Positions 1 through 29,115 of a DNA stretch of 45,236 nt are shown piece by piece. The notes beneath the pieces were generated by a model. It was not told where the DNA came from and did not search any database. It saw only the letters and a list, made by a program, of their open reading frames with translations. The stretch is taken from contig JBDRBI010000087.1 in NCBI GenBank assembly GCA_043822885.1, forward strand, positions 1-45,236, read 5' to 3'. Each line of letters opens with the position of its first letter. Positions within the stretch are counted from its first letter, which is position 1. Both the position numbers and the translations under genes were made by a program. Source of the DNA: Candidatus Omnitrophota bacterium. Its GTDB lineage: Bacteria; Omnitrophota; Gorgyraeia; Tantalellales; Tantalellaceae.

Positions 1-680
1 TAGAATTATACGAAAAATCGCTGTGTCTTGCACCTATTATCTCAAAGTTAAAATTTTCAATGTTAAAACTTTCACCTTTGCTATTAATTCCGGTAAATTC
101 GACTGGTCCTAAAAATGGCACCGGAGCATCTTTCATATTCAACAAAGATAAAGCTGCGCCTATTGGTCCCATTTCGACTACTTTCATAAAATCAGTGATA
201 TCAAAAGCTGGTTCAGTTCCATACACATTTATTACCCTGCTTACGTTCTCATTCTGTATGACCTGTTCTCCGATGAAAGGACCTTCATAAACTATTAAAG
301 TGTCTACACCTATATCAAGATTCTGATCAAGAGCCTCTATTGATGGTCTAAAGTGCCCCGAGTGCATAAAATATGACACTTCCCCTTCCTGTTGTTCCGG
401 AGTTAAGGAATGCCAAAAATCATTTAACTTTGCTGACATTTCATTCGTTATACTATCATAATCATCTTTTACAGCATCCAGCGTCCAGCTAATACAATTG
501 TTATAGAGTCCAAGAAAATTATCCGTATCTTCATAAGAACTTATTCCAAAAGCACTTGTAGAATTTATAACTTCATCAGCTATTAAATCGCTAATAAATA
601 AGTTCATAATTGTGGGTAATTTTCCTTCGCTGTTATCATTTCCAAATCCTCCGCCGAATAGCATGATGGAGGTTATCGCC
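1..680 (-). other. Possible alpha/beta-hydrolase (lipase-like) C-terminal domain, truncated by the window edge
   Basis: The order of elements resembles an alpha/beta hydrolase: strand plus glycine loop SIMLFGGGFGND, a nucleophile-elbow-like VSYFMHSGHF, LIVYEGPFIGE, and a late His in IIGARHSDF. The elbow is not a canonical G-x-S-x-G. Confidence 0.25.
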
Positions 681-3600
681 TGTTCTAGCTGTTCTTGATC
701 CAATGTCGTAAAAACCTGTGCGGCTTCACTCGCCATATCCGCATTTTCTATAACGAAATTGATGTCTCCACTACTGCTTACTGACCATACTACACCATCT
801 TCTTCTATCTCTATCGTATTTCCTGTAAAGGTGTAATCTTCTAATATCCAATCTATAAAAGAATATTGTTGTCCATATATATGATCTATTATGTCCACAT
901 TTTGATAACCTGCATCCGGGGTATAATAAAAATACCCTCCATCCCGTGGGATAACGTTATAATAAATTTCTTCAGTCACGCTATCTTTGATCTCAGAATA
1001 CGTTAGGCGTCCATCTTCTATCAACATGTAGATCTCTAAAGATCCGTATTTTTCTGTGAAATACCCGTTTAGTAAGCCCATATTTCCCTGTGTATCCACA
1101 GCCAGATCTCCATATACTAATTTATCAGGGTCTTTGATACCAACAACATTTCCCTCAGCATCAAACAATACTATCGTTTCACTGCCTTCGACTTCAACCC
1201 CTTCAACTGTTTCACCATTATCCAAGGTAACACTATTAGTTTCGCCCTTACTATATTTCTCATTAAGATACTTTCCGATGCTCCCCTCGATCTTCACCAT
1301 TGAATTAACCGCGGTTGAGTTGAAGAAGCTTGTTGCGTATGTGTTTAGGGCTGTTTCGAGGCCTTGTTCTTGGATAATATCAGAGAAATTCATAATATTA
1401 GCCTCATATGCCGCTTGACCCCAATAATCGTCCGGTTTTATGTTCGCTCCGAGGAAGGTCAAAGCGTTATCTTTATATATCTCAAACATCTTCTCAAATA
1501 ATCCCGTTTCCCTTGTCTGAAAATCTGTACTAAGACTTGCTTCTATTGCTCCTGCTATAGCGCTAAATCCTATATTCGCCAACAATGGGTCTAGGTCAAG
1601 TTCATCCACCGCGTAATTAAAGGCAACACTGGTTACTCCTTGTGAAATACCCATCATCGCGCCGTCAAACCAAGTCGTGTTAACATTATTATCAAAAGTC
1701 GCGTTTAATGAACTCCTTATCCCAATCCCCACTAGGTAGGAGAGTTGGGGGGAGATGCCTAGGACTTGGGCCATTTCTTGGACTCCTATGTAGGCGGTCT
1801 CGGAGGCTATGTTTATGGTGATGTCTCTAAATAGGTCTTCTCCTTTATGCGTCTTGCCGTCTATTTCCATCAGGCCGCCTACTAACGCGCCTGCGGATAT
1901 GGCGGCTAGCTGTGTGATCCTGGGGTCGAGATCCGCGGCTTTGCCTATTTCTTGAACGCCGGCTATAGTGCCGGAACGAAGCATACTTGTTACTGCATCT
2001 ATATCCGGGTCAAGGGAACCTATTGTTAATCCTGTCAGAAGTGATGAAGCGATATTTGAAAGGGACGGGTCGAGGCCTATACTTGTGAAAATACTGTTGG
2101 TTCCTATATCTACCGCGGTACTTATCGCGTATGTTGTCACTGCCTGCCCCAGTTCGGCTCCTAAGATATTCGAGAAGACATTACCGATACCCGTAGAGAT
2201 GTTGCTTACAACCTCTCCTATTGATCCAAATATTGGGATAGCGTTGGTAAAAGCGCCTTTTATCGAGGCGAATATTCCGTCACCGATATTACTGAATATA
2301 CTGCCGCATGTTTCGGATATGACCGGCATTAAACTTGTCGCTAGAAATCCTCCCACGGCAAAGGCCATATCCAATAAAGAACCCGTGCGGGCAACAAAGG
2401 ATACTGTTTGTATTACCGCATTGAGGCCGAGTAGCGCTAAACCTATCGGCTGGCCTCCGGGTATAAATAAAAGTATAGTAGCTATGGGCGCGATGATTTT
2501 TTGGAAAAAGCTTACTATACCTTTCCAGAATTTTTCCCACCATCCGGCGCCTCGTATGTTCTTTTCCTGGGACGCGTTCAGGTATTTATAATTAGTATCG
2601 CTTTCGTTGACTATTCTGCTTTCTGAAAGGACATGACCTTTCCATTCTTCCATGAATTCCACACGGGATATGGTTATGTCCTGCCCGTCCCTCCCTACTG
2701 AAAGGTCTTTGTACGTTACCGTGCCATCTTCCTCGTTTATTTCTTTGAGGACGACATAATGTTTGCCGTTTATGTGTAGGATCACGTCTTTACCCGAAGC
2801 GTATTGAGCTTTTAATTCATCGAAATCTATCTTTTCGCTGTAAAGGGTAAGGCCGTTCTTTTCAGCGGTCCGCTTCATCGCGTACATCGAAATAACGAGA
2901 TCGCCTTCGGTGTTTTTATTTATGATACCCGTTAATATATCTATCTTTACGCAGGCTGAGCCTATTTCATCGAATGTCTTTGTTGTCTCTTTGTTCTTAA
3001 ATAGTTCTATGATGGTCTTAAAAGCGCTGTCCCCGAAATGAAGGCTCTGCCCGCTCAGCCAGGTAAGTATGCTGTTTATGTTTTCTTGATCAAGGCCGGA
3101 TGTTTTTACGTCGCCCGAGGTAAGGCCAAGCGAAGACAGCATTGTTTCTTTTTGGAAGTCATCCGACGCGAGATATTCATCAAAGAATGAGGTTACTTCC
3201 GCTATGATATTCTCTTTCCACATCTCTCTTTCGGCAAACTCATCAAGGCCTTTTATATACGCTATTATTTCATCCGGATCTATTGTCACGTGATCCTGTT
3301 TTGCTTTCTCAAGCCAATATTTAAGTTCCTCTTCCCCGGGATCACGGCCCAGAACGGATCTGTAGTAAGCATATGTTACGGGAGAGCTTTCTTTCTGAAC
3401 GATGTCACCCAAAATTACGTTATAATCGTTCTCTACGAGATCCAGCATCGCTTGTTCGGCGTCGCCGGCGATCTTTATCCTGGCTTCGGCCACTTGTTTT
3501 TCCAGATCCTCGTAAGCTTCTTTTTCTTGCGCATACAGATCGATCTCGTATTCATCAAGTTCTCTCAATACCCTGTCGAATTCCGACAGATCGTATACGC

Positions 3601-6600
3601 CGGGATCATACCGGTTCTTCTCTTTCTGCAGTCTTTGCCGTTCGGAATCTATCTGTGCCTGTATATCACGCACTTTTAACGCGATATTCTCTCCTGCCTC
3701 AAGTTCCGATCGTTCCAATTCCGCCAAGGCGGTGTCTTCATTGACCGCTATTTCATGGATCGCTCCTTGATAAGCTTCCTCGAGTTTTTCCCTGGCTTCG
3801 GTAAATTCGGTCTTAAGGAGGTTTTTGTTCTCATCGTATGTGTACTCCACTAAAAGCGTGCCGGTTTTGTCTTTTACGTGCGTTACGTACGCGCCGTCAA
3901 AATATGTCACGGAATGGTCCGCGGCGACGGTCTGTACCGGCATATCGCTGGCTTTATCGTATACCGTTATGATTTTTTGCGATCCGCTTAAAAGGTGAGA
4001 CGGAATTTCTTCAACGAGTTCGGCGAAGATATTTGTGTCCAGGGTAAGAGCGCTTAGATCAATAAGATCATCGTTGTTGTCGATATTCACGCCCAGAGCG
4101 TCATAAGTTACCGTATTTTTTCCCGTGGTCACTTTTATTAGGTCTACATTACCGATATCCTGACGGTCTTTTGGTTTACTTGCATAGGTAATGGTTATAT
4201 TATCCGCGGTATTTGTTATCAGCGTTGGGCTTACTGTGGGATCATTCGTCGAAAGTACCGCTTTATATTGTATGAACTTACCTTTGGCAGAAGTTATTTT
4301 TGAACCCGCGGGATCCGTTAACGGCCCGGACCACACGCTCCATGCGGAGTCCGGTTCCGGAGTATCTCCCGTACGGGTATAAAAGACTATATCCGTACCT
4401 TCCGGCAGGTTCTCACTCCATGCGAGGGTGCCGTACGCGCTAGCATTAGTCTCGATCGCCTCTGATACCAGTTCGCCTTCGATCTTTCTTTCGATCTTAC
4501 CGGTATAGAGTGTAGGGATATCGGGTAGATCGCCTTCAAGATAGACATAATCTATACGCACCCTGCCGTACCCTCCGTTACCGCCGTTCCCTCCCGGGGA
4601 TGCCCCTATTCCCCGCGCCCCTCCTTCGGCTGTAATATTCCCTTTCTCAGAGATCTCTATTTCCGCGCCCCTAAGCCATATCGTTCCCCCGGATCCTCCG
4701 CCACCGCCGCCGGACCCGTCACCATGCGCATTTTCTCCGGGTTCGCCGCTAGCGGAGATCTTACCGTTTATTATTATTTCAGGCGCCGAGATGTATATGA
4801 CGCCGCCGCCATTTCCTCCGTTCCCTCCGCTGGTATGCATCAGAGAATGGTCCCCTCCCGCGCCTCCGCCCGAACCCATATACATCTCGTCTAGTTCATC
4901 TTGACCATAAGTATAACCCGCATAGCCCTGCAAATTGTATCCTCTGTATTTTTCCGGCGACCCGTTTGTCCCTTTTGTGCCGTAACTACCTCCGCCGCCT
5001 CCGCCTCCGCTGGGCGCGTCAGGCTGATGGTTCTGCCCGTCATACGCTCCGCCTCCGCCGCCGAAATTTGGTGAAGAAGTTTCTCCCCCTATACCCGTAT
5101 ATGATTCTCCCGATCCGTTCGCTCCGTAATTTCGGCTGTTCGAGGGGTTATTTGCGCCTCCTCTGAATCCCTTACCCGCGGCTTCGATAATACCGTCTAT
5201 TTTTACTTGTCCCGTGCAGTTAAGGATCATTTCTCCGCCCGTTGCGCCGTCCCATCCGTATACGGATAGAACACCTCCTTCAGCTACGTATATACTTGAA
5301 TATTGTTTAACACCGTCTATAAAAATCGTTTCCCCGGAAGATACTATTAGGTCACCGTCGGAACCAGTCCCGTAATCAAACGGTGTCTCTAAAAACGCGC
5401 ATGTATCTTTTTTTATCAGCGTTTCGTCTTGAACTAAAAGGCCGTTCAAAGAAACTTCACTATAAGCTTCCTCAATAATATATTCGTACGTATTTATTCT
5501 GCCGTCATCTTGCGTGATAGATCTTACGAAGCCTAATTCGTCATATTCAAAACCGGTACCGCCGGATGTAAGTATTTTTTCTATGGCGCCGTTCCTTAAA
5601 GTGTATGTTTCCCCGGCGGAAGTATGATCGAATATTTCTACGCCGTCTTCATTTAAAATAATATTGTCGATAAAACCGCCCTCGGCGAATTGTATTTTCG
5701 CAATCTCTCCCTGCACGTAAGTCGTGACCGTGCCTTCCATATCTTCTATCTCTTTAAGTTCGGAGATCACGACATTATCCCTTAGATATACCAGGCGCTG
5801 CGTTTCATTAAGTATGCACCCGGCTATGTCGGATATTATTTTATTAAGTCTTGTGTAATTAAATACAAACGGTAACGCGTCTACGTTATTATCATAGACG
5901 GATATATCGCCGCCGGAGGAGGCTGTTATTGAGAAGATATTATCGATATCCGATGTATCCTGAGGCGTTCTTTTATAGGTTACATTTATGCCGTTTGTGC
6001 CGCCGAAAAATATCTTCGGCGAAATAAGTTTATTTGTCGTTGAGAGCACCGCTTTGTATTGGATATATTTATTTCCGGATGAAGTTATAGCCGAACCGGC
6101 AGGGTCCGTTAATGGACCGGACCACGCGCTCCATGCCTGGTCCGGCTCCGGGGTATCACCCGTACGTGTATAAAAGACTATATCTGTTCCTTCAGAGAGT
6201 TCTTCAGACCAGTAAAGCGCCTCATATGTATCGGCATCGGTTTCTATTATATCGGATATTAGTTCCCCTTGAAGGGTTACGTCTTTTTCGGCCGCGTATA
6301 ATGTGGGGATATCGGGAAGATCGCCCTCAAATTCAACATAATCTATACGCACTCTTCCGTATCCGCCTTCACCGCCGTCTCCTCCGGTCGATGAGCCGTT
6401 TCCTTGGGCTCCTCCTTTGACCATTATCGCGTTTGTACCGGTGATATTTATTTCTTTTCCCCTAAGCCATACTGTTCCGCCGGATCCACCTCCACCGCCT
6501 CCGGCTCCGTCGCCGCCGTTTGTTCCATTCCCGCCGTTGGCGGAGATCGTGCCGTTTATTATAATTTCAGGAGCCGCAATATATATCGCGCCTCCCCCCG

Positions 6601-9600
6601 CGCCGCCATTACCGCCGCTATTACGCATCAGGGAATGGTCCCCTCCCGCGCCGCCTCCCGAACCCAGATATAACTTGTCCGGCTCTTTTGCTCCGTAAGT
6701 ATCTCCGCTATATCCCTGCAAACCGCGTCCTCTGTAACGTTCGGGAGAGCCGTTCGCGCCTTCGGTTCCGTAACTTCCGCCGCCTCCTCCTCCGCCGCCG
6801 GGCGCGTCGGGCTGATAACTCTGCCCGTCACTTGCTCCGCCGCCTCCTCCGTAATTAGGCGTTGGTCCTTCGGATCCTAACCCCGTGTATGATTCGCCTG
6901 CCGGATTTGCTCCGTAATTCCGGCCGGTCGAAGGATTATTTACTCCTCCTCCATACCCCTTACCCGCGGCTTCTATAATGCCGTCTATCCTTACAAGCCC
7001 CGTGCAATTCAGTATTATCTCTCCGCCCTTTGTTCCATCCCATCCGTTCACGGATAAGATCCCTCCTTCAGCTACGTATATGCTTGAATACTCTTTAGCG
7101 CCGTCTATAAGAACTGTCTCTCCGGAAGATACTATTAGATCACCGTCGGAACCGGTGCCGTAATCGAACGGTTCTTCCAGAAAAACGGATGAGTCCTTTA
7201 TATCCACTCCATTAAAAGAAAAAGCGCCGGCAAGGTCTTTTCCAGAGATAAAATGCTCGTCTTCTATTACATATTCATATGTTTCGATAACACCTTGCGG
7301 GGATATAACGCTTTCCACAAAACCCGCGGCATCATATTTGGTCAGAGTGCCGTCTGAAGCGATCGTCTCTTTTATTTTCCCGGGTCCGACGATATAAGCC
7401 GTTCCTTCATGAACATATTTGAGATCTTGCGGAGTATTATCATCACTAAAAGTGATCTCTTTAACAATTATCCCGTCAGGCCGGGTAATTTCTATGATAT
7501 TACCCGCATTGTCATATTTCACTTCCGAGAGATCCGGCATAAGGATCTCCATAAAACCGGTGCCTTCGTTAACGTAAGTATATGTATATTTTCTTTTCTT
7601 TGGATCTATCAGATATATAAGTTTTTTGTTCTTGTCATATGCCTGCACATTCCCGTCTTCATCATGGACCAAGGTAAGGTCCGCTTCATAACTATAAGTG
7701 TAGAGATACAGCACGTCTTCATCCGCGTACATCTTGGTTTCCGAGAGCCTGCCTTCAGCGTCATAATCGTAGCCTATCGTTATTTCAGCGCCTGTAAGTT
7801 CCCGCACCTTTTTCAGCCTGCCCTCAAGGTACCAGCGATATTCATTTTTATTATGGTCGTTTATTTTTACCATCCCGTCTTCATAAAACCAATCGTATAC
7901 GGATCCGTCGTTTAAGGTCATCTGTTCTATTTTTCCGTCTGAGTATTCGACAATATCCCCTTTATTATTGATCGTCCGCAGAATTTCTCCGTCATTGTAG
8001 AGGGTCATACTTCCGTCCGGAGCTGATATGACCGCGTTCGAGATATCCCCCGACTCGGAGAAAGTTATTTCTCTTATTTTCGTGCCGTCGGATCTTTCTA
8101 TTTCCTTCAGACCGCCGTTCTCATATATAATGCTGGTCTCATCATCCAAATGAAGAGATTCCAGTTCGCCCATATTATTGTATATTCTTGTTATACCGGA
8201 ACGGGCGACTTCCACTTTTTGGAGGTTTCCGGTTTCATTGAACAGATAATCGTATTCCGTAGAGTTTGACCCGCCATATACGCTTCTTATAAGATCGTTC
8301 TCATAGATCGCGTTTTCACCCTTGGAGTTCAACACTTTTGTTATTCTTTTGTTTTCGCCGTAATAGACCTTAAAAGGTATGTTTTCATCTACCTCAAGAC
8401 CCTCTTGGCTAACAAGTTCGGATATGGTCATATCTTGGTCTTTTTTAAGTTCGTATCTGTACTCTTCTCCGTCGGCGCTGATAAACCGTTTTAAATATCC
8501 GTTCTCGAATTCTGTAATACTCTTGTCCGCTTTAATGAATTTTATCGGTGTTCCATATTGATCGTATGTGCAGACCGTTTCTCCGTTCGTTATCCTGATA
8601 AATAAAATATTTCCGAATAGATCCCGTATATATTCAAAGACCGTGATACCTGAAGCTCTATGATATTCCGATACTAAAGATCCCTCTCTGAACCTCTTTA
8701 CGGTCCCGTCCGCGAGTATTATCTGTAACATTTTCCCGTTATATATAACGCCTAACGCGCCGTCAGGATATTTCATTACAGCGTTCTTTATCCCGCCGGA
8801 CCCATCCGGCTCTATATCGCTCAATACGATATCGGTCCCGGCCAGTGTGATCCCGGAGATGGCGCCGTCCTGATAATATATTTTGTCTCCCCGGCTGTTG
8901 GTAACCGATATTCCTGAAGTGTCATATTTTATACCGTGCCCTATCAGAGCCGGATCGTATGAATACAGTAAAACGCCGTCAGCGGACGTGATCTCTATAC
9001 ATCCATCCGTCAGATATTTATAAATTTCGATCATGTTCTCATTATCATCATACAGATATTCCGCATAGACTTCATCCGGGGTTATATGCCATAAAAGGAG
9101 ACCTTTATCGTCATATTCTATCCAGTTCCCGTAAGGATCGCGTACGGATCTCTTCTCACCGTTATTATGATATGTATAGGTCGTGCCCTGAAGATGATCG
9201 GTCTTGTTTAAAAGAATGCCGCCCGCGTCATATTCATATGTTGCTTCCGGAACATTACCAGCGCTGTATTCCTTTATGTGCCGCGCTTGGGAAGTTCCCG
9301 CATAGTAATTCTCAAATATTTTATATTTTCCTCCGGGGTCGGTTTCTTTTAAAAGGGTTCCTTCTTCGGTATCACTGTATTCATAGACCGTGCCATCGGA
9401 TAACGTTTTCAGATGAAGTCTTCCGCTATCAGAATATGTATAAGACGCGCCTTCAAACCATGTATCAACAACATCTTGCTCAAAGGATAGATGGTTCTCA
9501 AAATCATCGTAATGATAATATTTGTTTATTTCCGACCCCGTATTCGGAACATAGTTCTTTATAAGCTTATCTTGCGGACCGTATTTGTATATTTCTCCGT

Positions 9601-12600
9601 TGGCGTATACCCGGATCTTGCCTGTGTATTCACCGTTTTCGGTATATGTATAAGATGTGAAAAGGCCGTTACTATCCAAGCTCGTATTTAGAATATAGCT
9701 TTCTCCCAGATATTGATATGAACGTAAGCTTCCATCCGGTTTCTCGTGTATATAGATATTATCCGGAGTTATTTTCACTGTTCCTATTTTTTCAAGTGTA
9801 TCTTTTATATTATTTTTTATGTCTGAGACTTCAATGGATTCGGACGGGCCGGGGATATTTAACACAATAGGTATGGTCTTTGCTTTTTCTAAGACCGTAT
9901 ACGTACCAGTCAGATCCGATGATATATCGGAGCTTATATCCGAATATTTTAAAAGATCCGGGTCGTCCGAGTTTTTAGGTAAAAGATCCGCATTATCCGA
10001 TGAGATAACAAAATCTTGCGTTCTCATTTCGGCGGGAATATCGTTGTCTAATAAAAGGCCCGCCTTGGTATTATACTCGTATACTTCAAGGTTATCATAT
10101 ACTTCGGTCTTTATATTACCGCCGTATATGTTCGCGTAGACCCTGGGTGCCCAGTTCGCGTCCTCCAGTACATATATAGGTTCGCCCGGGGATAAACCTT
10201 TCTCATAACAATATATTCTAATCTCATTATTCTCCAACACGCATTCTATTATATAGCTTTTACCCGGCGCCAATTCTATATCCAGCGGCTTCTTTTCACT
10301 TGTGTTCTTACCCGTCGTGTAATCATAGGTGTCATACACCATCTCCATCTTTCCGCCATAATACCTGGTGTACAGGGATTCGTATTTAGTGTTAGAAGTA
10401 TTACCTATCGTGTAATAGAGATTTTTCGCGGTGTTATTGTTATCAAAATTGAATTCTGTCCTGTAAATAGGGTCTTTTTTTAAGGGACACGCGTAATCTG
10501 TGGATATTGACTGTATATCCCTGAAACTTGTGATCGCGGGTTCCGACAATGCAACGTTCGCGTTAGAACCGCTCACTGAAAATTTCGGGTCCCATTCAGC
10601 GTCATGTATAACATAAATAGGCTCATCCGGACGGGCATCCACCGTTTTATATAGATATATCTCGACATCTTGATCTTTCCATATGTATTCTAATTTATAT
10701 TCTTTTCCTTTATCGATGGTGATATCGAGGTACCGGCTATCATATTCGCTTTCTCCCGTAGATTGATCATAGTTGTAATAAGCTAAATAAGGATTTTTAT
10801 CGGATATGCTCAGTGATACGCCGACATTTTTATCGCCGCCGTTATAATACTCCGCGCCGGCGTAAAAACTGGCATATGTTTTATCCGGATCCAGGAGGAA
10901 TGTCGTTTCCAGAGATGGATTTGACGCGGGCTCTATAAATGTAGTCCCGTAAAAACCCTGATAAAGATTGGTCGCGTCATATAAGCGCCGTTTATATATT
11001 CTAAGATTGTCCTCATCCGTTATTTCATACGCGTAATGCGCGATATCGCCGTCCGGAAAAACCGCTTTTTCTATTCTTTCTTCGAAAAGTCCGCTCTCAT
11101 AAAAAGAAAGTACCGTCCCTTCGGGAAAATTCGGATATATGGAATCTACATTTCCTTCTTCGCCGTATTCGTATAAAGTGATCTCTCCGCCCAGCCTCTC
11201 TTCTTTTATAAGCCGGTCATCAGAGTTATATACCTTTATAGTCCCTTCAGGCAGAGTTATTATTTTATATAAAAGTCCTCCGGAAGGGTCGTGCTCATAT
11301 ATGATAGTTTCGTCACCGTCATTTCTGCCGCATTTAAGCACATCTCCGGTTACTTTACCATATTCATAATATTCCAAATTATCCCAGGCATTCACAATTA
11401 CATCCCCGCCGGATACGCCGGTGTAAATTTGGGGCTGCATATGTATATTCTCGAACGCATATATAGGAGAGGTTCTTTCTTTACCTTTTTCGTAGAGATA
11501 TACGGTTACGGTATCATCTTCATTTATCATCTCCATAACATATGGAGTATCCTCCTCTATATTCATCTCAAACGGTATGTCTCGAATTTCGGCCTTGCCG
11601 TCATTATCATAAGAATATAATTCCACGGAACTGGTGCCGTTATCGTAGCTGAAGCTCAGAGCATACGATATTTCCTTCGTTCCCCCGGTTAATCTGGAAT
11701 AAAACACTTTATTTTGAGCCACGCTATCTAAATAAAATTCCGCTTCATATATGGCGGACCCATGCAATGTGTCCTGAAAGCTTCCGCAAACACTTTTATT
11801 TGCCATATATGTCCCGGAAGATGCCTCATCGACCTTAACTTCGGCATTATTCCCCGAAGAAAAGAATTTGGGGTCCCATTCATTATCTTCTATCACAAAG
11901 GTCGCTACGTCAGGCCTTTCTAAAGAAGCCTCATATATGTATATCCCCACATTTTCATCCGTCCATATATATTCTGTGACATAATCCGCGCCGCTCTTTA
12001 TTGCTATATCTATCTTCTCGCTTTTCTGATCGTAAACATCCGTGACATAATTATAGTTGCAATATTTGATCGTCGAGAGATCGTCATTGAGAGATATAGA
12101 TATATCTATATATTTTTCACCTCTTTTGTAATAAGACGCTCCATTTGCGGCAAACGCTTCTTTATCATCATTAGCGTCAAGATTATATATTGTTTTAAGA
12201 TAAGGGGTCTCTTCTCTGTCTATATTTTCTGATCCGTAATATCTCTGATAAACCCTATAACCATCGTATATCTCTCTTTTAATCACCTTTAAAGCGCCTT
12301 CTTGTGTAAGATCATAATCATACCGGTCATAAGTCCCCTCAAGGTTCGAGTAACTTCTCAATCTTCCTTTGGCGTCCAATTCTTTTATCGTACCGTCTAG
12401 TTGAGTAAGCACGGTCTTAATATGTTCCCGATCTTCGGCATAGATATAATCATATACATTATCGCCTCTATAGCATTTAATAAGATCCCAATATTCGTTA
12501 TATATATATTTTCTGTCGGCGGTTTCTATGATCACCTTCCCGCCGGCGGTATCCTTGGAATATTTGATCCTTTCTGCGGCAGAGCCGGGCCGTATGATGA

Positions 12601-13420
12601 TCGCGTTAAGAAGTGCTCCTTCTTCATCCAAACTGAATTCTTCTAAGACGCTTCCGTCCGCAAAAACGATCGAAATAACCTTCCCTTCCTTAATATGATA
12701 TTCAGTCCCGTCCCCTCTTTCTATTCTTAAGACATTTCCGTTCTCATACTCTATGGTCCGGCCGTTGAAATACTCAACTCTTTGCAGATCATCATTCGAC
12801 CCGTAATATAAAAATTTATCGGCCTCTTTTACTTTTATCTGTACGATCTCATTGTTATCGTTTTTTTCATATGCATATACCCTGCTTTTTCCGTCCGTAT
12901 ATTCAATATGTTCGACAAGGCCTTCGTCGTTATAAGTAAATTTTGTGCCGTCTTCATCTAATATCGAAATAAGTTTTCCTTCTAGTATTGATATTTCCTT
13001 TTTATCAGCATACGTAATGTCCGCATCCAACAAACCGCCTTCCGGATCCAAGATGATGTTTTTAATGATAGTGCCGTCAGATCTTTTTATATTTTTAAGG
13101 CTCCCGTTATCATAACTTACGATGTCACCAATTTCCGTGGTAATACAAAACTCCGTATTCTGAGGAGAGTAAGGATCTTGCTCTGAATTAAGGATGTTAA
13201 AATCTTCTATCGTTTGCTTCTGAGACATTAATGCTTCTAAAATTGTGGAAGAAGATTGAGTTTCTGATATTACTAAACCGGATATGTTTTCTATTTGTTT
13301 TGAACTTATGACTTCCAAAAGATCATCCGCGCACCAAGCGACCTGATTAAATAAAAAGATCCCGGCAACAATTACCGAGATCGATTTGAGGAATAAATTA
13401 TATTCTGATTTTTTCTTCAT
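1..13420 (-). CDS. Giant secreted multidomain surface/toxin-like protein; 3' end runs off the window (at least 4473 codons)
   Basis: I translated the reverse frame by hand (codon low coordinate = 2 mod 3). It is open from ATG 13418-13420 down to base 2, and I found no in-frame stop. An in-frame upstream stop lies at 13520-13522. The N-terminus is MKKKSEYNLFLKSISVIVAGIFLFNQVAWCADD. The sequence looks protein-like throughout. It is absent from the ORF track, presumably because no stop lies inside the window (the partial tuf is omitted in the same way). Confidence 0.85.
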   Translation of the reverse strand, partial: MKKKSEYNLFLKSISVIVAGIFLFNQVAWCADDLLEVISSKQIENISGLVISETQSSSTILEALMSQKQTIEDFNILNSEQDPYSPQNTEFCITTEIGDIVSYDNGSLKNIKRSDGTIIKNIILDPEGGLLDADITYADKKEISILEGKLISILDEDGTKFTYNDEGLVEHIEYTDGKSRVYAYEKNDNNEIVQIKVKEADKFLYYGSNDDLQRVEYFNGRTIEYENGNVLRIERGDGTEYHIKEGKVISIVFADGSVLEEFSLDEEGALLNAIIIRPGSAAERIKYSKDTAGGKVIIETADRKYIYNEYWDLIKCYRGDNVYDYIYAEDREHIKTVLTQLDGTIKELDAKGRLRSYSNLEGTYDRYDYDLTQEGALKVIKREIYDGYRVYQRYYGSENIDREETPYLKTIYNLDANDDKEAFAANGASYYKRGEKYIDISISLNDDLSTIKYCNYNYVTDVYDQKSEKIDIAIKSGADYVTEYIWTDENVGIYIYEASLERPDVATFVIEDNEWDPKFFSSGNNAEVKVDEASSGTYMANKSVCGSFQDTLHGSAIYEAEFYLDSVAQNKVFYSRLTGGTKEISYALSFSYDNGTSSVELYSYDNDGKAEIRDIPFEMNIEEDTPYVMEMINEDDTVTVYLYEKGKERTSPIYAFENIHMQPQIYTGVSGGDVIVNAWDNLEYYEYGKVTGDVLKCGRNDGDETIIYEHDPSGGLLYKIITLPEGTIKVYNSDDRLIKEERLGGEITLYEYGEEGNVDSIYPNFPEGTVLSFYESGLFEERIEKAVFPDGDIAHYAYEITDEDNLRIYKRRLYDATNLYQGFYGTTFIEPASNPSLETTFLLDPDKTYASFYAGAEYYNGGDKNVGVSLSISDKNPYLAYYNYDQSTGESEYDSRYLDITIDKGKEYKLEYIWKDQDVEIYLYKTVDARPDEPIYVIHDAEWDPKFSVSGSNANVALSEPAITSFRDIQSISTDYACPLKKDPIYRTEFNFDNNNTAKNLYYTIGNTSNTKYESLYTRYYGGKMEMVYDTYDYTTGKNTSEKKPLDIELAPGKSYIIECVLENNEIRIYCYEKGLSPGEPIYVLEDANWAPRVYANIYGGNIKTEVYDNLEVYEYNTKAGLLLDNDIPAEMRTQDFVISSDNADLLPKNSDDPDLLKYSDISSDISSDLTGTYTVLEKAKTIPIVLNIPGPSESIEVSDIKNNIKDTLEKIGTVKITPDNIYIHEKPDGSLRSYQYLGESYILNTSLDSNGLFTSYTYTENGEYTGKIRVYANGEIYKYGPQDKLIKNYVPNTGSEINKYYHYDDFENHLSFEQDVVDTWFEGASYTYSDSGRLHLKTLSDGTVYEYSDTEEGTLLKETDPGGKYKIFENYYAGTSQARHIKEYSAGNVPEATYEYDAGGILLNKTDHLQGTTYTYHNNGEKRSVRDPYGNWIEYDDKGLLLWHITPDEVYAEYLYDDNENMIEIYKYLTDGCIEITSADGVLLYSYDPALIGHGIKYDTSGISVTNSRGDKIYYQDGAISGITLAGTDIVLSDIEPDGSGGIKNAVMKYPDGALGVIYNGKMLQIILADGTVKRFREGSLVSEYHRASGITVFEYIRDLFGNILFIRITNGETVCTYDQYGTPIKFIKADKSITEFENGYLKRFISADGEEYRYELKKDQDMTISELVSQEGLEVDENIPFKVYYGENKRITKVLNSKGENAIYENDLIRSVYGGSNSTEYDYLFNETGNLQKVEVARSGITRIYNNMGELESLHLDDETSIIYENGGLKEIERSDGTKIREITFSESGDISNAVISAPDGSMTLYNDGEILRTINNKGDIVEYSDGKIEQMTLNDGSVYDWFYEDGMVKINDHNKNEYRWYLEGRLKKVRELTGAEITIGYDYDAEGRLSETKMYADEDVLYLYTYSYEADLTLVHDEDGNVQAYDKNKKLIYLIDPKKRKYTYTYVNEGTGFMEILMPDLSEVKYDNAGNIIEITRPDGIIVKEITFSDDNTPQDLKYVHEGTAYIVGPGKIKETIASDGTLTKYDAAGFVESVISPQGVIETYEYVIEDEHFISGKDLAGAFSFNGVDIKDSSVFLEEPFDYGTGSDGDLIVSSGETVLIDGAKEYSSIYVAEGGILSVNGWDGTKGGEIILNCTGLVRIDGIIEAAGKGYGGGVNNPSTGRNYGANPAGESYTGLGSEGPTPNYGGGGGASDGQSYQPDAPGGGGGGGGSYGTEGANGSPERYRGRGLQGYSGDTYGAKEPDKLYLGSGGGAGGDHSLMRNSGGNGGAGGGAIYIAAPEIIINGTISANGGNGTNGGDGAGGGGGGSGGTVWLRGKEINITGTNAIMVKGGAQGNGSSTGGDGGEGGYGRVRIDYVEFEGDLPDIPTLYAAEKDVTLQGELISDIIETDADTYEALYWSEELSEGTDIVFYTRTGDTPEPDQAWSAWSGPLTDPAGSAITSSGNKYIQYKAVLSTTNKLISPKIFFGGTNGINVTYKRTPQDTSDIDNIFSITASSGGDISVYDNNVDALPFVFNYTRLNKIISDIAGCILNETQRLVYLRDNVVISELKEIEDMEGTVTTYVQGEIAKIQFAEGGFIDNIILNEDGVEIFDHTSAGETYTLRNGAIEKILTSGGTGFEYDELGFVRSITQDDGRINTYEYIIEEAYSEVSLNGLLVQDETLIKKDTCAFLETPFDYGTGSDGDLIVSSGETIFIDGVKQYSSIYVAEGGVLSVYGWDGATGGEMILNCTGQVKIDGIIEAAGKGFRGGANNPSNSRNYGANGSGESYTGIGGETSSPNFGGGGGAYDGQNHQPDAPSGGGGGGGSYGTKGTNGSPEKYRGYNLQGYAGYTYGQDELDEMYMGSGGGAGGDHSLMHTSGGNGGNGGGVIYISAPEIIINGKISASGEPGENAHGDGSGGGGGGSGGTIWLRGAEIEISEKGNITAEGGARGIGASPGGNGGNGGYGRVRIDYVYLEGDLPDIPTLYTGKIERKIEGELVSEAIETNASAYGTLAWSENLPEGTDIVFYTRTGDTPEPDSAWSVWSGPLTDPAGSKITSAKGKFIQYKAVLSTNDPTVSPTLITNTADNITITYASKPKDRQDIGNVDLIKVTTGKNTVTYDALGVNIDNNDDLIDLSALTLDTNIFAELVEEIPSHLLSGSQKIITVYDKASDMPVQTVAADHSVTYFDGAYVTHVKDKTGTLLVEYTYDENKNLLKTEFTEAREKLEEAYQGAIHEIAVNEDTALAELERSELEAGENIALKVRDIQAQIDSERQRLQKEKNRYDPGVYDLSEFDRVLRELDEYEIDLYAQEKEAYEDLEKQVAEARIKIAGDAEQAMLDLVENDYNVILGDIVQKESSPVTYAYYRSVLGRDPGEEELKYWLEKAKQDHVTIDPDEIIAYIKGLDEFAEREMWKENIIAEVTSFFDEYLASDDFQKETMLSSLGLTSGDVKTSGLDQENINSILTWLSGQSLHFGDSAFKTIIELFKNKETTKTFDEIGSACVKIDILTGIINKNTEGDLVISMYAMKRTAEKNGLTLYSEKIDFDELKAQYASGKDVILHINGKHYVVLKEINEEDGTVTYKDLSVGRDGQDITISRVEFMEEWKGHVLSESRIVNESDTNYKYLNASQEKNIRGAGWWEKFWKGIVSFFQKIIAPIATILLFIPGGQPIGLALLGLNAVIQTVSFVARTGSLLDMAFAVGGFLATSLMPVISETCGSIFSNIGDGIFASIKGAFTNAIPIFGSIGEVVSNISTGIGNVFSNILGAELGQAVTTYAISTAVDIGTNSIFTSIGLDPSLSNIASSLLTGLTIGSLDPDIDAVTSMLRSGTIAGVQEIGKAADLDPRITQLAAISAGALVGGLMEIDGKTHKGEDLFRDITINIASETAYIGVQEMAQVLGISPQLSYLVGIGIRSSLNATFDNNVNTTWFDGAMMGISQGVTSVAFNYAVDELDLDPLLANIGFSAIAGAIEASLSTDFQTRETGLFEKMFEIYKDNALTFLGANIKPDDYWGQAAYEANIMNFSDIIQEQGLETALNTYATSFFNSTAVNSMVKIEGSIGKYLNEKYSKGETNSVTLDNGETVEGVEVEGSETIVLFDAEGNVVGIKDPDKLVYGDLAVDTQGNMGLLNGYFTEKYGSLEIYMLIEDGRLTYSEIKDSVTEEIYYNVIPRDGGYFYYTPDAGYQNVDIIDHIYGQQYSFIDWILEDYTFTGNTIEIEEDGVVWSVSSSGDINFVIENADMASEAAQVFTTLDQEQLEQAITSIMLFGGGFGNDNSEGKLPTIMNLFISDLIADEVINSTSAFGISSYEDTDNFLGLYNNCISWTLDAVKDDYDSITNEMSAKLNDFWHSLTPEQQEGEVSYFMHSGHFRPSIEALDQNLDIGVDTLIVYEGPFIGEQVIQNENVSRVINVYGTEPAFDITDFMKVVEMGPIGAALSLLNMKDAPVPFLGPVEFTGINSKGESFNIENFNFEIIGARHSDFSYNS
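1530..2555 (-). other. Hydrophobic Gly/Ser/Ile-rich region of about 340 aa with predicted TM helices and LDP-initiated helical repeats
   Basis: GAGWWEKFWKGIVSFFQKIIAPIATILLFIPGGQPIGLALLGLNAVIQTVSFV...LLDMAFAVGGFLATSLMPVI...GSIFSNIGDGIFASIKGAFTNAIPIFGSIGEVVSNISTGIGNVFSNILG. Repeats then follow, each starting LDP or ISP: GLDPSLSNIASSLLTGLTIGS / LDPDIDAVTSMLRSGTIAGV / LDPRITQLAAISAGALVGGL / ISPQLSYLVGIGI / LDPLLANIGFSAIAGAIEA. Confidence 0.55.
2620..3080 (-). other. Peptidase C39-like (papain-fold) domain, apparently lacking the catalytic Cys
   Basis: LSGQSLHFGDSAFKTIIELF...ISMYAMKRTAEKNGLTLYSEKIDFDELKAQYASGKDVILHINGKHYVVLKEINEEDGTVTYKDLSVG...ISRVEFMEEWKGHVL follows the C39 layout: Q, then nucleophile helix, ..., H-[FY]-V-V-L, ..., D, ..., W-x-G. 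The position normally occupied by D-C-G reads G-D-S-A here. Confidence 0.45.
3222..3392 (-). other. DUF4214-like motif in the giant protein
   Basis: YAYYRSVLGRDPGEEELKYWLEKAKQ...EIIAYIKGLDEFAERE resembles the DUF4214 signature (lYr-x-iLgRepD-x-x-G-x-x-yW ... S-x-EF). Recognised by eye only. Confidence 0.45.
3430..3805 (-). other. Coiled-coil-like segment of the giant protein
   Basis: A charged region of about 120 aa with heptad-like character: EAREKLEEAYQGAIHEIAVNEDTALAELERSELEAGENIALKVRDIQAQIDSERQRLQKEKN...YAQEKEAYEDLEKQVAEARIKIAGDAEQAMLDLVEN. Confidence 0.5.
4190..5390 (-). repeat. Intragenic tandem duplication, unit B core: glycine-rich region (about 4500-5390) plus beta-sandwich-like domain (about 4190-4499)
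   Basis: Collinear with unit A: PFDYGTGSDGDLIVSSGETIFIDG...GGGGGGGSYG...GSGGGAGGDHS...GGNGGNGGGVIYISAPEIIINGKISASG...GGGGGGSGGTIWLRG...GGNGGNGGYGRVRIDY...GTDIVFYTRTGDTPEPDSAWSVWSGPLTDPAGSKITSAKGKFIQYKAVLST. The plus-strand track ORFs 4191-4382 and 5988-6173 end in near-identical peptides, which independently shows the DNA repeat. Confidence 0.8.
5985..7180 (-). repeat. Intragenic tandem duplication, unit A core: glycine-rich solenoid-like region (about 6290-7180) plus beta-sandwich-like domain (about 5985-6289)
   Basis: Protein: PFDYGTGSDGDLIVSSGETVLIDG...IIEAAGKGYGGG...GGGGGGGGSYG...LGSGGGAGGDHS...GGNGGAGGGAIYIAAPEIIINGTISANGGNG...GGGGGGSGGTVWLRG...GGDGGEGGYGRVRIDY. This is followed by ...GTDIVFYTRTGDTPEPDQAWSAWSGPLTDPAGSAITSSGNKYIQYKAVLST. 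The offset to unit B is about 1788-1791 bp. Confidence 0.8.
7290..10072 (-). repeat. Degenerate YD/RHS-like beta-hairpin repeat region of the giant protein (similar blocks at 12256-13240, 10969-11357, 5391-5984, 3806-4189)
   Basis: Recurrent approx 20-aa units with a Y-x-Y-D-x-x-G-x-L signature, e.g. TYEYDAGGILLNKTD, RDPYGNWIEYDDKGLLL, IGYDYDAEGRLSETKMY, VEYTYDENKNLLKTEF. I saw no canonical Rhs core PxxxxDPxGL motif. Confidence 0.5.
10073..10968 (-). repeat. Bipartite beta-rich module, copy 2
   Basis: See copy 1. Each copy has two sub-domains, each ending in a (I/V)Y(L/I/C)YE-like strand followed by P-x-Y-x-x-E/D-x-x-W. Confidence 0.7.
11358..12255 (-). repeat. Bipartite beta-rich module, copy 1 (about 300 aa) in the giant protein
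   Basis: Aligns along its length with copy 2. Examples: YQRYYGS/YQGFYGT; GASYYKRGEKYIDISISL/GAEYYNGGDKNVGVSLSI; EYIWTDENVGIYIYEASLERPDVATFVIEDNEWDPKFFSSG/EYIWKDQDVEIYLYKTVDARPDEPIYVIHDAEWDPKFSVSG; and the ends DNLEYYEY/DNLEVYEY. Confidence 0.7.
13328..13420 (-). other. Predicted N-terminal signal peptide of the giant protein
   Basis: MKKK charged n-region, hydrophobic ISVIVAGIFLF core, then small residues VAWCA before DD. There is no clear lipobox. Confidence 0.6.
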
Positions 13421-13475: not shown

Positions 13476-13504
13476 AAAATAACATAATTTTCCTTTTTTG
13501 TCAA
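13476..13504 (-). promoter_or_regulatory. Sigma70-like promoter with extended -10 for the giant gene
   Basis: The minus strand reads TTGACA (13499-13504), a 17 nt spacer ending in TGT, then TATTTT (13476-13481). This sits about 55 nt upstream of the ATG. A weak GAGG lies 7-8 nt before the start. Confidence 0.5.
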
Positions 13505-13626
13505 TATTTTTTTATCTTTTCACAAAAAGCCAGTTGCTTACACTCTCCCCCCTGAGACACCAGGCTTAACCTGGTTAGATTCTGCCAGGTTAGAATTGTA
13601 TTCGTTTTTATCTTTTGGTAGTTTAA

Positions 13627-22455: not shown

Positions 22456-22929
22456 TTAGTTATTTTTCCACAATCCACGATCGGATCGGCGGGCTTCTTC
22501 CTGTATGCTTTTAAATTCCTCTAAATATCTCAGGTTCGGAAAAATAAAAAGGGTTCTGGCTAAACCGCTTCTCAAAAGTTCCTCATTTACCATCAAACCA
22601 TCATGTGTTTTTACATAAGCTAAGAGCCTTCCGTATTTATCAAGTTTTTCCGTGTCAAATTCCAGGGAAACTTCTTTCCCTTCAACGAGATCCTTATTGA
22701 ACGCTTTTGCTTCAACGCTATATGGTTCAGGATCAAATATCCATATACCGTTTTTTATCTTATTGGTCTCGGGCGTATCTACTCCGATGTATCTTACCCT
22801 CTCACCATTCCACAATTCGATCGTATCGCCGTCTATGACCTTTTTAACTACGAACCACTGCGGTTCGGCGATCGAGAAAGTTGCGCACAGAATTAACACG
22901 ATCAATACTGTGATAATCTTGTATCTCAT
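22456..22929 (-). CDS. Secreted staphylococcal-nuclease-like (SNase/thermonuclease) protein
   Basis: Signal peptide MRYKIITVLIVLILCATFSIA, then SNase motifs DGDTIEL, VRYIGVDTPE, YGRLLAYV, NEELLRSGLA, RGLW. Confidence 0.8.
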   Translation of the reverse strand: MRYKIITVLIVLILCATFSIAEPQWFVVKKVIDGDTIELWNGERVRYIGVDTPETNKIKNGIWIFDPEPYSVEAKAFNKDLVEGKEVSLEFDTEKLDKYGRLLAYVKTHDGLMVNEELLRSGLARTLFIFPNLRYLEEFKSIQEEARRSDRGLWKNN

Positions 22930-28382: not shown

Positions 28383-28445
28383 AAAAGGCCAGAATGCCAA
28401 AAGTGCCGGATATTATGTTCCTCACTTTGACTCTTCTGGCCTTTT
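28383..28445 (-). terminator. Terminator-like long hairpin downstream of rplQ
   Basis: The minus strand reads AAAAGGCCAGAA...(bulged inner stem CAAAGTG/CACTTTTG)...TTCTGGCCTTTT followed by AATTTTGAT. It lies between the rplQ stop (28474) and the mutS start. Confidence 0.45.
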
Positions 28446-28473
28446 GCCTAGACATTTTACAACACCACGGTCT

Positions 28474-29091
28474 TTATATCGACTTGCGCTGGAATCTTTT
28501 GAATAGCCCTTTCTTTTCTCTTTTTTTCTGCTCAGTTTTTGCTTTCTCTTTCTTTACAGCTAAATTTGTGTGTTCTTCTTTTTTGCTAATTTCAGTTTTA
28601 GTCTTGGCCTCTTCTTTTTCCTCATCTTTAGGCTGTTTGTCTTTAGCTAGATCTTCCGCTTTACCCTTTTTTGTTTTCTCTTTTTTCTCTTTTATTTTAT
28701 CTTCGCCCAAAAGCTTATCATCAGAGATCGAGCGTCTTGAGAGTTCCATAATAACGGTCCTGGCTCCGTCTCCTCTTCTGTTTCCCAAGGCCATTATCCT
28801 TGTGTATCCGCCGGGAACATCCTTAAAGAGAGGCGCTATATCATTAAAAAGCGTGGTCACGGAAGCTCTATTGCACAGCTTCTTGAATGCCAGTCTTCTT
28901 GCGTTCACGGATTCCGGATTGTTTTTAGCCAATGTTATTAACGGTTCCGCGAAACTTCTTAATGCTTTGGCCTTAGCCATTGTCGTCTCTATCCTCTGGT
29001 ATTTCAAAAGATCCATAGTTAAACTTTTCAGCGTGGCCTTTCTCCAGCTGGTACGCCTGTTAAGTCTGCCTTTCTTTTTCTTATGTCTCAT
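28474..29091 (-). CDS. rplQ: 50S ribosomal protein L17 with a Lys/Glu-rich C-terminal extension of about 85 aa
   Basis: MRHKKKKGRLNRRTSWRKATL...GGYTRI core, then a tail EDKIKEKKEKTKKGKAEDLAKDKQPKDEEKEEAKTKTE... Confidence 0.95.
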   Translation of the reverse strand: MRHKKKKGRLNRRTSWRKATLKSLTMDLLKYQRIETTMAKAKALRSFAEPLITLAKNNPESVNARRLAFKKLCNRASVTTLFNDIAPLFKDVPGGYTRIMALGNRRGDGARTVIMELSRRSISDDKLLGEDKIKEKKEKTKKGKAEDLAKDKQPKDEEKEEAKTKTEISKKEEHTNLAVKKEKAKTEQKKREKKGLFKRFQRKSI

Positions 29092-29115
29092 TATTATCCC
29101 TTCAAATTTTATCGG

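Follow-up and report, generated by a model that had tools for sequence, protein, structure and literature searches.

The analyzed window, which is the entire 45,236-nucleotide contig JBDRBI010000087.1 of a Candidatus Omnitrophota bacterium (assembly GCA_043822885.1), carries a 13.4-kb stretch that is one real, truncated gene encoding an exported giant protein of about 4,540 residues. We lean, with modest confidence, towards the view that this protein is a Sec-exported effector of the polymorphic-toxin type in which a scaffold makes contact, a C-terminal fragment is the active part, and a TPR partner protein protects or matures the enzyme. Under this mechanism, the scaffold would extend from the cell or be released and bind the surface of another cell, and a C39-like domain would recognize a leader-like segment located just after itself and cut after Gly3624-Ala3625. 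The cut would free from the scaffold a C-terminal fragment with helices that insert into membranes, with hydrophobic hairpin repeats and with a lipase/esterase-like domain; this domain would attack envelope lipids or esters, and a small TPR protein with a membrane anchor, the gene for which would lie immediately beyond the contig end, would protect or mature the enzyme in the periplasm of the producer. The cleavage, the target and the role of the partner are all inferred.

The reverse frame from position 2 to position 13420 contains 4473 codons and, as had been noticed in an earlier inspection of the letters alone (the sequence-only reading), not a single stop, whereas each of the other five frames has 155-387 stops over the same interval. 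The ATG start codon occupies 13418-13420, with GAGG 8 nucleotides 5' of it, and the G+C content of this open reading frame (ORF) is 43.2%, compared to 42.3% in the remaining contig. The identical 4473-residue partial protein is present in a public protein library (P0016). A fragment that is 81% identical (P0012) extends 66 residues beyond the last residue encoded in the window, and the protein of locus L006, with the same type of tail, runs 61 residues past this point, so that the complete protein can be estimated at about 4,540 residues. The sequence-only reading had described one giant secreted protein cut by the window edge; both the single exported protein and the truncation stand, and given that the window is the whole contig, it is the contig end, not merely the window edge, that truncates the gene. 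The order of domains is colinear with that in independent assemblies, over residues 1-4131 in P0020 (4543 aa) and over residues 1436-4160 in L003, an observation that speaks against a chimera. The two Gly-rich modules of the protein are only 76-79% identical at the DNA level and thus represent a diverged duplication rather than a collapsed repeat. The plus-strand ORFs of 102-207 aa found between 1056 and 11620 (for example, 1968-2591) are shadows of the giant frame. No locus identical to the window was detected among the GTDB species-representative contigs scanned.

The gene and the features of its C-terminal part are as follows (the slash marks the candidate cleavage).

2..13420, minus strand: giant ORF, 4473 codons, cut by the contig end, about 66 codons missing.
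3386..3808, minus strand: charged amphipathic helical region, aa ~3205-3345, 40% charged residues, 3.6-residue periodicity.
3221..3385, minus strand: DUF4214-like motif, aa ~3346-3400, Pfam PF13946, E 0.008, sub-threshold.
2621..3103, minus strand: C39-like papain-fold domain, aa ~3440-3600, Pfam PF03412, 32.8 bits.
3026-3028, minus strand: Ser3465, in the nucleophile column of the C39-like domain.
2759-2761 and 2705-2707, minus strand: His3554 and Asp3572 of the C39-like domain.
2543..2581, minus strand: double-glycine-leader-like motif, aa 3614-3626, L(-12)NASQ(-8)EKNI(-4)RG(-2)A(-1)/G, candidate cleavage after Ala3625.
2318..2521, minus strand: three transmembrane (TM)-like segments, aa 3634-3654, 3658-3677 and 3682-3701, Kyte-Doolittle 19-residue window at or above 1.6.
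1241..2317, minus strand: Gly/Ala/Ser-rich hydrophobic domain, aa ~3702-4060, four units of ~50 aa.
701..1240, minus strand: beta-rich pre-tail region, aa ~4061-4240, inside which the alignment of close relatives ends.
2..700, minus strand: C-terminal alpha/beta-hydrolase (lipase/esterase-like) domain, aa ~4241-4473, truncated.
359-361, 128-130 and 23-25, minus strand: Ser4354, Asp4431 and His4466, the conserved set of the hydrolase domain.

The tail has no match in Pfam, NCBIfam or PDB sequences, even with profiles, and word-indexed searches retrieved only 2-4 homologous proteins; the necessary depth came from a search of cluster representatives. The resulting alignment of 39 tail sequences has four invariant positions, G, S, G and H, and five more (W, P, P, G and D) with a conservation of 90% or higher. 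AlphaFold2 run with 4 sequences gave an unusable model with a predicted local distance difference test (pLDDT) score of 43, whereas the 39-sequence alignment yielded a pLDDT of 85.5 and a predicted template modeling score of 0.80. In this model, Ser4354 is located between a strand (124-129) and a helix (130-142), and the order Ser4354, Asp4431, His4466 is that of the alpha/beta-hydrolase triad. When the model was compared to the PDB using Foldseek, all 50 matches listed were alpha/beta hydrolases, with a probability of about 1 and E-values down to 3e-4. They include the esterase PsEst3 (7v8x), the Archaeoglobus fulgidus lipase (2zyr) and Bacillus LipA (1i6w/7r1k), with target-normalized TM-scores of 0.53-0.62, and, among further matches, PETases/cutinases and a polyhydroxybutyrate depolymerase. 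Many relatives possess tails that are distantly homologous to that in the window and contain the canonical G-[YF]-S-G-G motif together with G-A-x-H-x-D-[YF]. The predicted alpha/beta-hydrolase fold of the tail, with lipases and esterases as its nearest neighbors, is thus well supported, as is, at the level of prediction, the enzymatic C-terminus that the sequence-only reading had deemed possible and in which a conserved Ser-Asp-His set was now identified; the substrate, by contrast, is not well supported, with lipids or esters as candidates. The hydrolase domain is found in 90 of 214 family sequences, in all but one of which it ends no more than about 20 residues from the C-terminus.

The comparison of relatives strongly supports the resemblance to polymorphic toxins that had been proposed from the sequence: the tips are swapped, some of them are toxin modules, and the downstream gene changes along with the tip. 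In L056, L007, L005 and L003, which are 40-45% identical to the window protein over the hydrophobic domain, the alignment ends about 510-547 residues after the candidate cleavage site and the tails are unrelated, whereas the distant L031 and L034 share only the tail with the window protein. Searches of the last 450 aa of the giant ORFs identified other tips, namely, Ntox10 (3e-24) in L018, PT-TG pre-toxin (1e-4) in L024, Peptidase_C92 (3e-8) in L010/L013 and Abhydrolase_8/DUF676/Tle3-like in L005, each with a different small ORF downstream. Zhang et al. (2012; PMC3482391) cover both Ntox10 and lipase-like alpha/beta-hydrolase toxins in their survey of polymorphic toxins.

Most loci in which the 3' end is complete have a same-strand ORF that begins between -60 and +40 nucleotides from the stop codon of the giant gene. 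Where two such partner ORFs are similar, the tails are similar as well in 33 of 35 pairs. Tails of the window type are followed by N-terminally anchored (by a signal peptide or a TM segment) TPR proteins in L006, L031, L034 and L060, and the genes downstream of other tips encode small multi-TM proteins, proteins with a signal peptide or a PD40 lipoprotein. The co-variation of tail and partner does not simply reflect shared ancestry because the backbones of L006 and L031 differ greatly, yet the types of both tail and partner match. In L001 (11914-13140), the giant ORF ends early and a 393-aa ORF located 41 nucleotides downstream continues a P0002-like hydrolase tail (GGINNPNP); a frameshift, a sequencing error or decay into a pseudogene would account for the early stop. 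Eight ORFs starting with MARPLRIEYPGAFYHVYSRG are located downstream in six loci (L001, L018, L024, L033, L038 and L057) and, judged by eye, look like RAYT/IS200-type transposases. Mobile-element flanks have been remarked on previously (10.64898/2026.06.07.730766).

The family to which the protein belongs is large. Among 1.84 billion cluster representatives (clustered at 50% identity), a profile search retrieved at least 468 proteins at E of 1e-3 or below, including 177 at 1e-30 or below; the profile spanned the whole C-terminal part of the protein owing to the inclusion of the full-length P0002 in the alignment. Among 214 pooled family sequences, many of which are fragments, the C39-like domain is present in 181, the helical/DUF4214 region in 139 and the hydrophobic domain in 134, compared to 82-98 for the YD/RHS regions, 35 for the sandwich module, 23 for the bipartite module and 13 for the AgmC-like module. 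From these counts, the C-terminal cassette is the constant feature of the family and the scaffold is modular. The cassette consists of the helical region with the DUF4214-like motif, the C39-like domain, the leader-like motif, the TM-like segments with the hairpin repeats, and a variable C-terminal domain. Of the 59 related loci in GTDB species representatives, 57 are labeled Omnitrophota or 'uncultured' (Planctomycetia/bacterium), and the family appears to be restricted almost entirely to Omnitrophota. The sequence-only reading did not recognize this combination of domains and thereby overstated its isolation: the cassette is shared by the cluster representatives counted above, and a group of 24 long Omnitrophota proteins with a PF03412 architecture has been already catalogued (10.64898/2026.06.07.730766). 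The order in which that reading had placed the major parts, with a scaffold followed by a protease-like domain, a membrane-active region and an enzymatic C-terminus, was borne out.

The C39-like domain exceeds the gathering cutoff of PF03412 (22 bits), with a match that covers only positions 45-127 of the 133 in the profile. In an hhalign comparison (probability 80%, E 1.5e-5), His3554 and Asp3572 are paired with the catalytic His105 and Asp121 of CvaB, the reference sequence of which was verified by 100% identity in E. coli plasmids. The invariant family motif H-F-[GA]-x-S-A puts Ser3465 in the position where a small subclade has I-N-C-A, and in a member of this subclade (L042), a weak match to Peptidase_C39_2 (PF13529) starts exactly at the Cys. 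The assignment of the nucleophile column is based on the in-family alignment, the spacing and this weak match, and the column contains Ser in 144 and Cys in 7 domains (unique sequences). Thus, of the C39-like papain-fold domain discerned by eye, the family match, the His and the Asp stand, and the catalytic Cys does not, being replaced by Ser. Even in relatives with as little as 27-30% identity, there is hardly any variation at Ser3465, His3461, His3554 and the G-[AS] site, and none at His3554.

C39 peptidases recognize double-glycine leaders with the consensus L(-12)xxxE(-8)L(-7)...GG/GA/GS (PMC6363468), and the motif that the giant protein carries in cis fits this consensus. The tetrapeptide [IV]-R-G-[AS] is found in 55 of 60 sequences, about 190-260 residues past the start of the aligned C39-like region. 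These sites were selected with a regular expression, so that G at -2 and A/S at -1 are forced; among the positions that are not, L/I occurs at -12 in 48 of the 55 and Q/E at -8 in 42. A TM-like segment follows within 70 residues after the site in 135 of 138 Ser-type relatives and in none of the 7 Cys-type relatives (L035, L042, L045, L047, L048, L050 and L053), which have the G-[AS] site, too, at an unchanged distance, followed by charged soluble sequence.

The region downstream of the candidate site shows the hydrophobic character that the sequence-only reading had attributed to it. Each unit of the hydrophobic domain has the form '[amphipathic helix]-G-L-D-P-[hydrophobic helix]', with a conserved block FSDIIQEQGLETALNTYATSFF, and neither this domain nor the beta modules of the scaffold produced a meaningful match in profile searches of Pfam, NCBIfam and PDB.

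A more specific and doubtful version of the mechanism, to which we would give rather less credence than to its denial, is that the C39-like domain is a natural Ser-nucleophile papain-fold (clan CA) peptidase that would cleave its own built-in double-glycine leader at the membrane interface, and that such self-cleavage would release or arm a membrane-inserting lipase-type toxin that the ultra-small Omnitrophota would direct at host or prey envelopes; we consider this combination unlikely. Cleavage after Ala3625 by the Ser-type domain, taken by itself, is a tentative proposition that seems unlikely to somewhat doubtful, and of all the steps of the mechanism it is the least certain.

Several observations weigh against the effector reading. 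The catalytic Cys that defines C39 appears to be absent, its position being strictly conserved as Ser, and proteolysis therefore should not be assumed; no member of the C39 fold is known to have a Ser nucleophile. The domain may only bind rather than cut, and none of the C39 models could be aligned to its N-terminal half. The Sec signal together with the TM-like segments would by default retain the C-terminal part in the inner membrane of the producer, and the side of the membrane that holds the hydrolase is ambiguous because the number of TM helices is 2 or 3. No secretion system that crosses the outer membrane is encoded in the window. As for the enzyme, the query-normalized Foldseek TM-scores are only 0.3-0.47, and the nucleophile elbow in the window is M-H-S-G-H rather than small-x-S-x-small. 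A partner gene of the window protein would lie beyond the contig end and hence is not visible, the partners in other loci match no known immunity family in Pfam, and the co-variation of tail and partner would fit a dedicated foldase, too.

The first of these points is the basis of an alternative view of the C39-like domain, namely that it is non-catalytic, as in HlyB-type transporters, and serves at the membrane as an intramolecular latch or docking element that holds the leader-like segment next to it, with no cut being made. C39-like domains that lack the Cys can bind the substrate without cleavage (PMC6363468), and the prevalence of Ser in place of the catalytic Cys (144 of 151 domains) as well as the strict coupling of the Ser type to the ensuing membrane segment, where the 7 Cys-type members are soluble and charged, are compatible with such a role. 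Nevertheless, the near-invariance of the three residues Ser3465, His3461 and His3554 and of the G-[AS] site suggests that an active-site-like geometry is under selection and not a binding surface alone, and the retention of that site at an equal distance in the Cys-type subclade also runs counter to a latch, which we regard as a possible but on the whole unlikely explanation.

The main rival of the effector reading as a whole, which we consider unlikely, is that the protein is a surface fiber of the producer. Under this scenario, the TM segments would anchor the protein in the inner membrane of the producer, the N-terminal 3,600 residues would form an adhesive or structural periplasmic or surface fiber, the C39-like domain would shed the fiber, the hydrolase would act on the envelope of the producer, and the TPR partner would be a steric chaperone similar to Lif. 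The Sec signal and the TM-like segment located right after the conserved site in nearly all Ser-type relatives are in line with this possibility, and so is the position of the giant gene next to glycolipid and lipid-modifying genes. Moreover, 39% of 916 long Omnitrophota proteins are predicted to combine a signal peptide with TM segments, which makes this topology second in frequency (10.64898/2026.06.07.730766). The partners are N-terminally anchored all-helical proteins encoded directly after the lipase-like domain. The usual order of the respective genes in bacteria with family I lipases is a lipase gene followed by the gene for the lipase-specific foldase, Lif, which is the steric chaperone of these lipases; the order of the partner genes is the same and can be read as support for the fiber. 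However, close relatives swap tips, including bona fide toxin modules such as Ntox10 and PT-TG, which is unexpected for a housekeeping enzyme, and the non-hydrolase tips have unrelated small partners, as would be the case for immunity proteins, rather than one conserved assembly factor. Furthermore, the partners have no match to the Lipase_chap family of Pfam, so that Pfam lends no support to their identification as Lif-like foldases.

Canonical Rhs, MARTX and artifact explanations are essentially excluded. It is highly improbable that the YD repeats form a closed shell around a C-terminal toxin that is released by the aspartyl autoprotease of the RHS core, as in canonical Rhs and Tc toxins. 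The matches to RHS_repeat and YD_repeat, along with the RHS-like beta-helical filaments in Omnitrophota giants (West-Roberts et al., 2023), are suggestive of such an arrangement, but the RHS-associated core domain was not found with NCBIfam or Pfam, the DPxG[LW] motif is nowhere in the protein, about 1,400 residues of other modules, the protease-like domain and the TM segments separate the repeats from the tip, and PAAR, VgrG and TcB are absent from the context. Even less plausible is a MARTX/RTX toxin exported through a type I secretion system (T1SS), a likeness that the sequence-only reading had drawn. Similar to these toxins, the protein is gigantic, has Gly-rich repeats and contains an internal papain-like protease with effector-like sequence after it; nevertheless, RtxA/hemolysin-type repeats and the C80 cysteine protease domain were not detected with Pfam and NCBIfam, the N-terminal signal is of the Sec type, complete relatives terminate in the hydrolase domain, without a Gly-rich or T1SS-like tail, and genes for the ABC transporter, membrane fusion and outer membrane proteins do not flank the family loci. 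Finally, a misassembled chimera, or several ordinary genes joined through sequencing errors, could be imagined for a metagenome-assembled contig with a gene that reaches its end and contains internal duplications, but is a negligible prospect in view of the stop-free frame, the matching G+C content, the divergence of the internal repeats and the colinearity with independent assemblies across 4,131 residues.

N-terminal to the cassette, the protein has a signal peptide and a long scaffold with the following features.

13331..13420, minus strand: signal peptide, aa 1-30, KKK, hydrophobic core, A-W-C/A (the slash marks the cut).
12251..13153, minus strand: N-terminal YD-like repeats, aa ~90-390, Pfam RHS_repeat 4.8e-6, matches in 82 family proteins.
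11351..12238, minus strand: bipartite beta-rich module A, aa ~395-690, no Pfam match.
10076..10978, minus strand: bipartite beta-rich module B, aa ~815-1115, 34% identical to module A.
7271..9823, minus strand: long RHS/YD-repeat region, aa ~1200-2050, PF05593 RHS_repeat 1.5e-12 and TIGR01643, matches in 98 family proteins.
6326..7198, minus strand: Gly-rich module 1, aa ~2075-2365, resembles the N-terminal domain of AgmC.
5966..6313, minus strand: beta-sandwich-like module 1, aa ~2370-2485, duplicated in module 2, matches in 35 family proteins.
4541..5407, minus strand: Gly-rich module 2, aa ~2672-2960.
4181..4528, minus strand: beta-sandwich-like module 2, aa ~2965-3080, copy of module 1.

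Most of the parts that the sequence-only reading had listed for this portion of the protein were recovered: the signal peptide, which is conserved within the family; the YD-like repeats, which match RHS_repeat and TIGR01643; the two bipartite beta-rich modules; and the two Gly-rich modules with their sandwiches. A crude screen found the signal pattern '..K.I..I.V..FL..Q..WA/' (slash again for the cut) in 22 of 33 complete N-termini of the family, and P0029 has it too. The two halves of module A are 28% identical to each other, which suggests that modules A and B comprise four copies of a putative beta domain of about 150 residues. A Pfam match to FeoA lies inside module B at 10144-10275 (aa 1049-1092) with 25.1 bits, barely over the cutoff; we judged it incidental, probably no more than the resemblance of an SH3-like beta-barrel. 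The Gly-rich modules match NF047640 of NCBIfam in two stretches (7.5e-37), at 127 bits and hence below the curated cutoff of 275 bits, so that the similarity is at the domain level only. The first and second copies of the Gly-rich module together with the sandwich are 70% identical at the protein level, and the sandwich character of the latter is a putative fold. The coiled coil that had been proposed at aa ~3205-3345 was not upheld: the region has the periodicity of an amphipathic helix, 3.6 residues, and its heptad signal is no stronger than in shuffled sequences. The DUF4214-like motif that had been noted after it is matched, albeit below the threshold.

The contig is chromosomal DNA of an Omnitrophota metagenome-assembled genome, and all credible genes between 13.6 and 45 kb are on the same strand as the giant gene. 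Proteins that cluster with L14 and L16 of the contig at 90% identity or above bear the names Candidatus Omnitrophota bacterium or Candidatus Aadella gelida. The giant gene is preceded by one putative regulatory feature.

13476..13504, minus strand: promoter-like site TTGACA-17-(TG)TATTTT, ~56 nucleotides upstream of the ATG, consensus match only.

The claims that the gene has its own promoter and is located downstream of glycolipid and glycosylation genes agree with these data, the former to the extent of this consensus match. In the order of rising coordinates from the giant gene, a small membrane protein similar to multidrug exporters, a GT2 glycosyltransferase, a lipid A-type acyltransferase and a GT28 protein similar to monogalactosyldiacylglycerol synthase are encoded, followed in the same direction by aminotransferases, LeuCD-like proteins, LipB and a staphylococcal nuclease homolog and, farther on, by Nth, MutL, MutS and a block of ribosomal proteins from L17 to S10 with SecY, Adk and Map (those from Nth onwards named from translations by eye). 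No synteny matches were found between these upstream genes and the family loci. The nuclease homolog (22456-22929, minus strand), encoded between an aminotransferase gene and nth, contains an N-terminal hydrophobic signal-like segment and may be a secreted nuclease. A 10-bp inverted repeat at 13566-13593, between the upstream membrane-protein gene and the promoter-like site, is a doubtful terminator because there is no T-run on the coding strand. The ORF at 28394-29392 on the plus strand, opposite L17/RpoA, is a shadow.

Omnitrophota are uncultivated, mostly ultra-small bacteria that are suspected to be predators or parasites. The family described here provides the hypothesis of predation or parasitism with concrete, testable parts, namely, swappable toxin-like tips that include known toxin modules, cognate partner genes, and a previously unannotated family of lipase-like enzymes. 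If the Ser-type domain does cut, it would represent a natural replacement of Cys by Ser in a C39 peptidase, with the substrate motif built into the same protein, and could be useful for the study of protease mechanisms and for the development of tools for leader removal.

Among the known systems, large clostridial toxins and MARTX resemble the giant protein in their very large size and in the location of an internal cysteine-protease-like domain beside a hydrophobic membrane-insertion region; the protease family, the order of domains and the route of export differ, and homologous domains were not detected. The effectors Tle with their partners Tli in type VI secretion systems, as well as the family I lipases with Lif, similarly combine a Ser alpha/beta-hydrolase with a subsequent gene for a periplasm-facing partner, and the tip of one relative matches the Tle3 model. 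However, the type VI context is absent, the tail has no sequence match to Tle, lipase or esterase families, and the TPR-like partner has no match to any of the known Tli or Lif families.

The long and giant proteins of Omnitrophota (West-Roberts et al., 2023; 10.64898/2026.06.07.730766) come from the same phylum and share with the present protein RHS-like beta structures, C39 domains and TM segments close to the C-terminal end, and the common topology of a signal peptide with TM segments. Those giants reach 30-147 thousand residues, compared to about 4.5 thousand here, and the dockerin/TSP3, SecA-like and multi-enzyme content by which archaeovorin/dockerin-type giants differ was not found in the present protein with Pfam. 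Polymorphic tips, partners, lipase-like domains, the Ser substitution and the in-cis double-glycine motif are not mentioned in these two preprints. The C39 domains of the ABC exporters of bacteriocins and the PCAT type (CvaB, ComA, LahT and PCAT1) resemble the giant protein in the papain-like C-terminal half, where the His and the Asp are at homologous positions, and the putative substrate motif fits the leader consensus of these exporters. Unlike them, the domain in the giant protein is internal to a very large secreted polypeptide and does not form the N-terminal part of an ABC transporter; Ser takes the place of Cys, and a leader-like segment in cis follows immediately C-terminal to the domain, with a 'cargo' of about 900 residues that starts with TM helices.

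Canonical Rhs toxins have in common with the giant protein the YD/RHS repeats, from which the latter differs in lacking the RHS core and the DPxGL motif. The closest parallel is with polymorphic toxins at large, for which RHS stalks, papain-like peptidases and lipase-like tips are already known (Zhang, de Souza, Anantharaman, Iyer and Aravind, 2012; PMC3482391). The giant family differs from these in that its internal peptidase is of the C39-like kind, has Ser in the nucleophile position and precedes a double-glycine-leader-like site of its own and TM segments, a layout of which we found no description in that survey or in the two preprints on Omnitrophota; in that downstream arrays of spare tips are not seen; in its apparent restriction to Omnitrophota; and in the most common tip, an unclassified family of alpha/beta-hydrolases. 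What both share is the N-terminal export signal, the RHS/YD stalk, the internal papain-like peptidase, the variable C-terminal tips, among which relatives of the giant protein carry Ntox10 and PT-TG, and, as seen in relatives, an adjacent small gene that is a candidate cognate partner.

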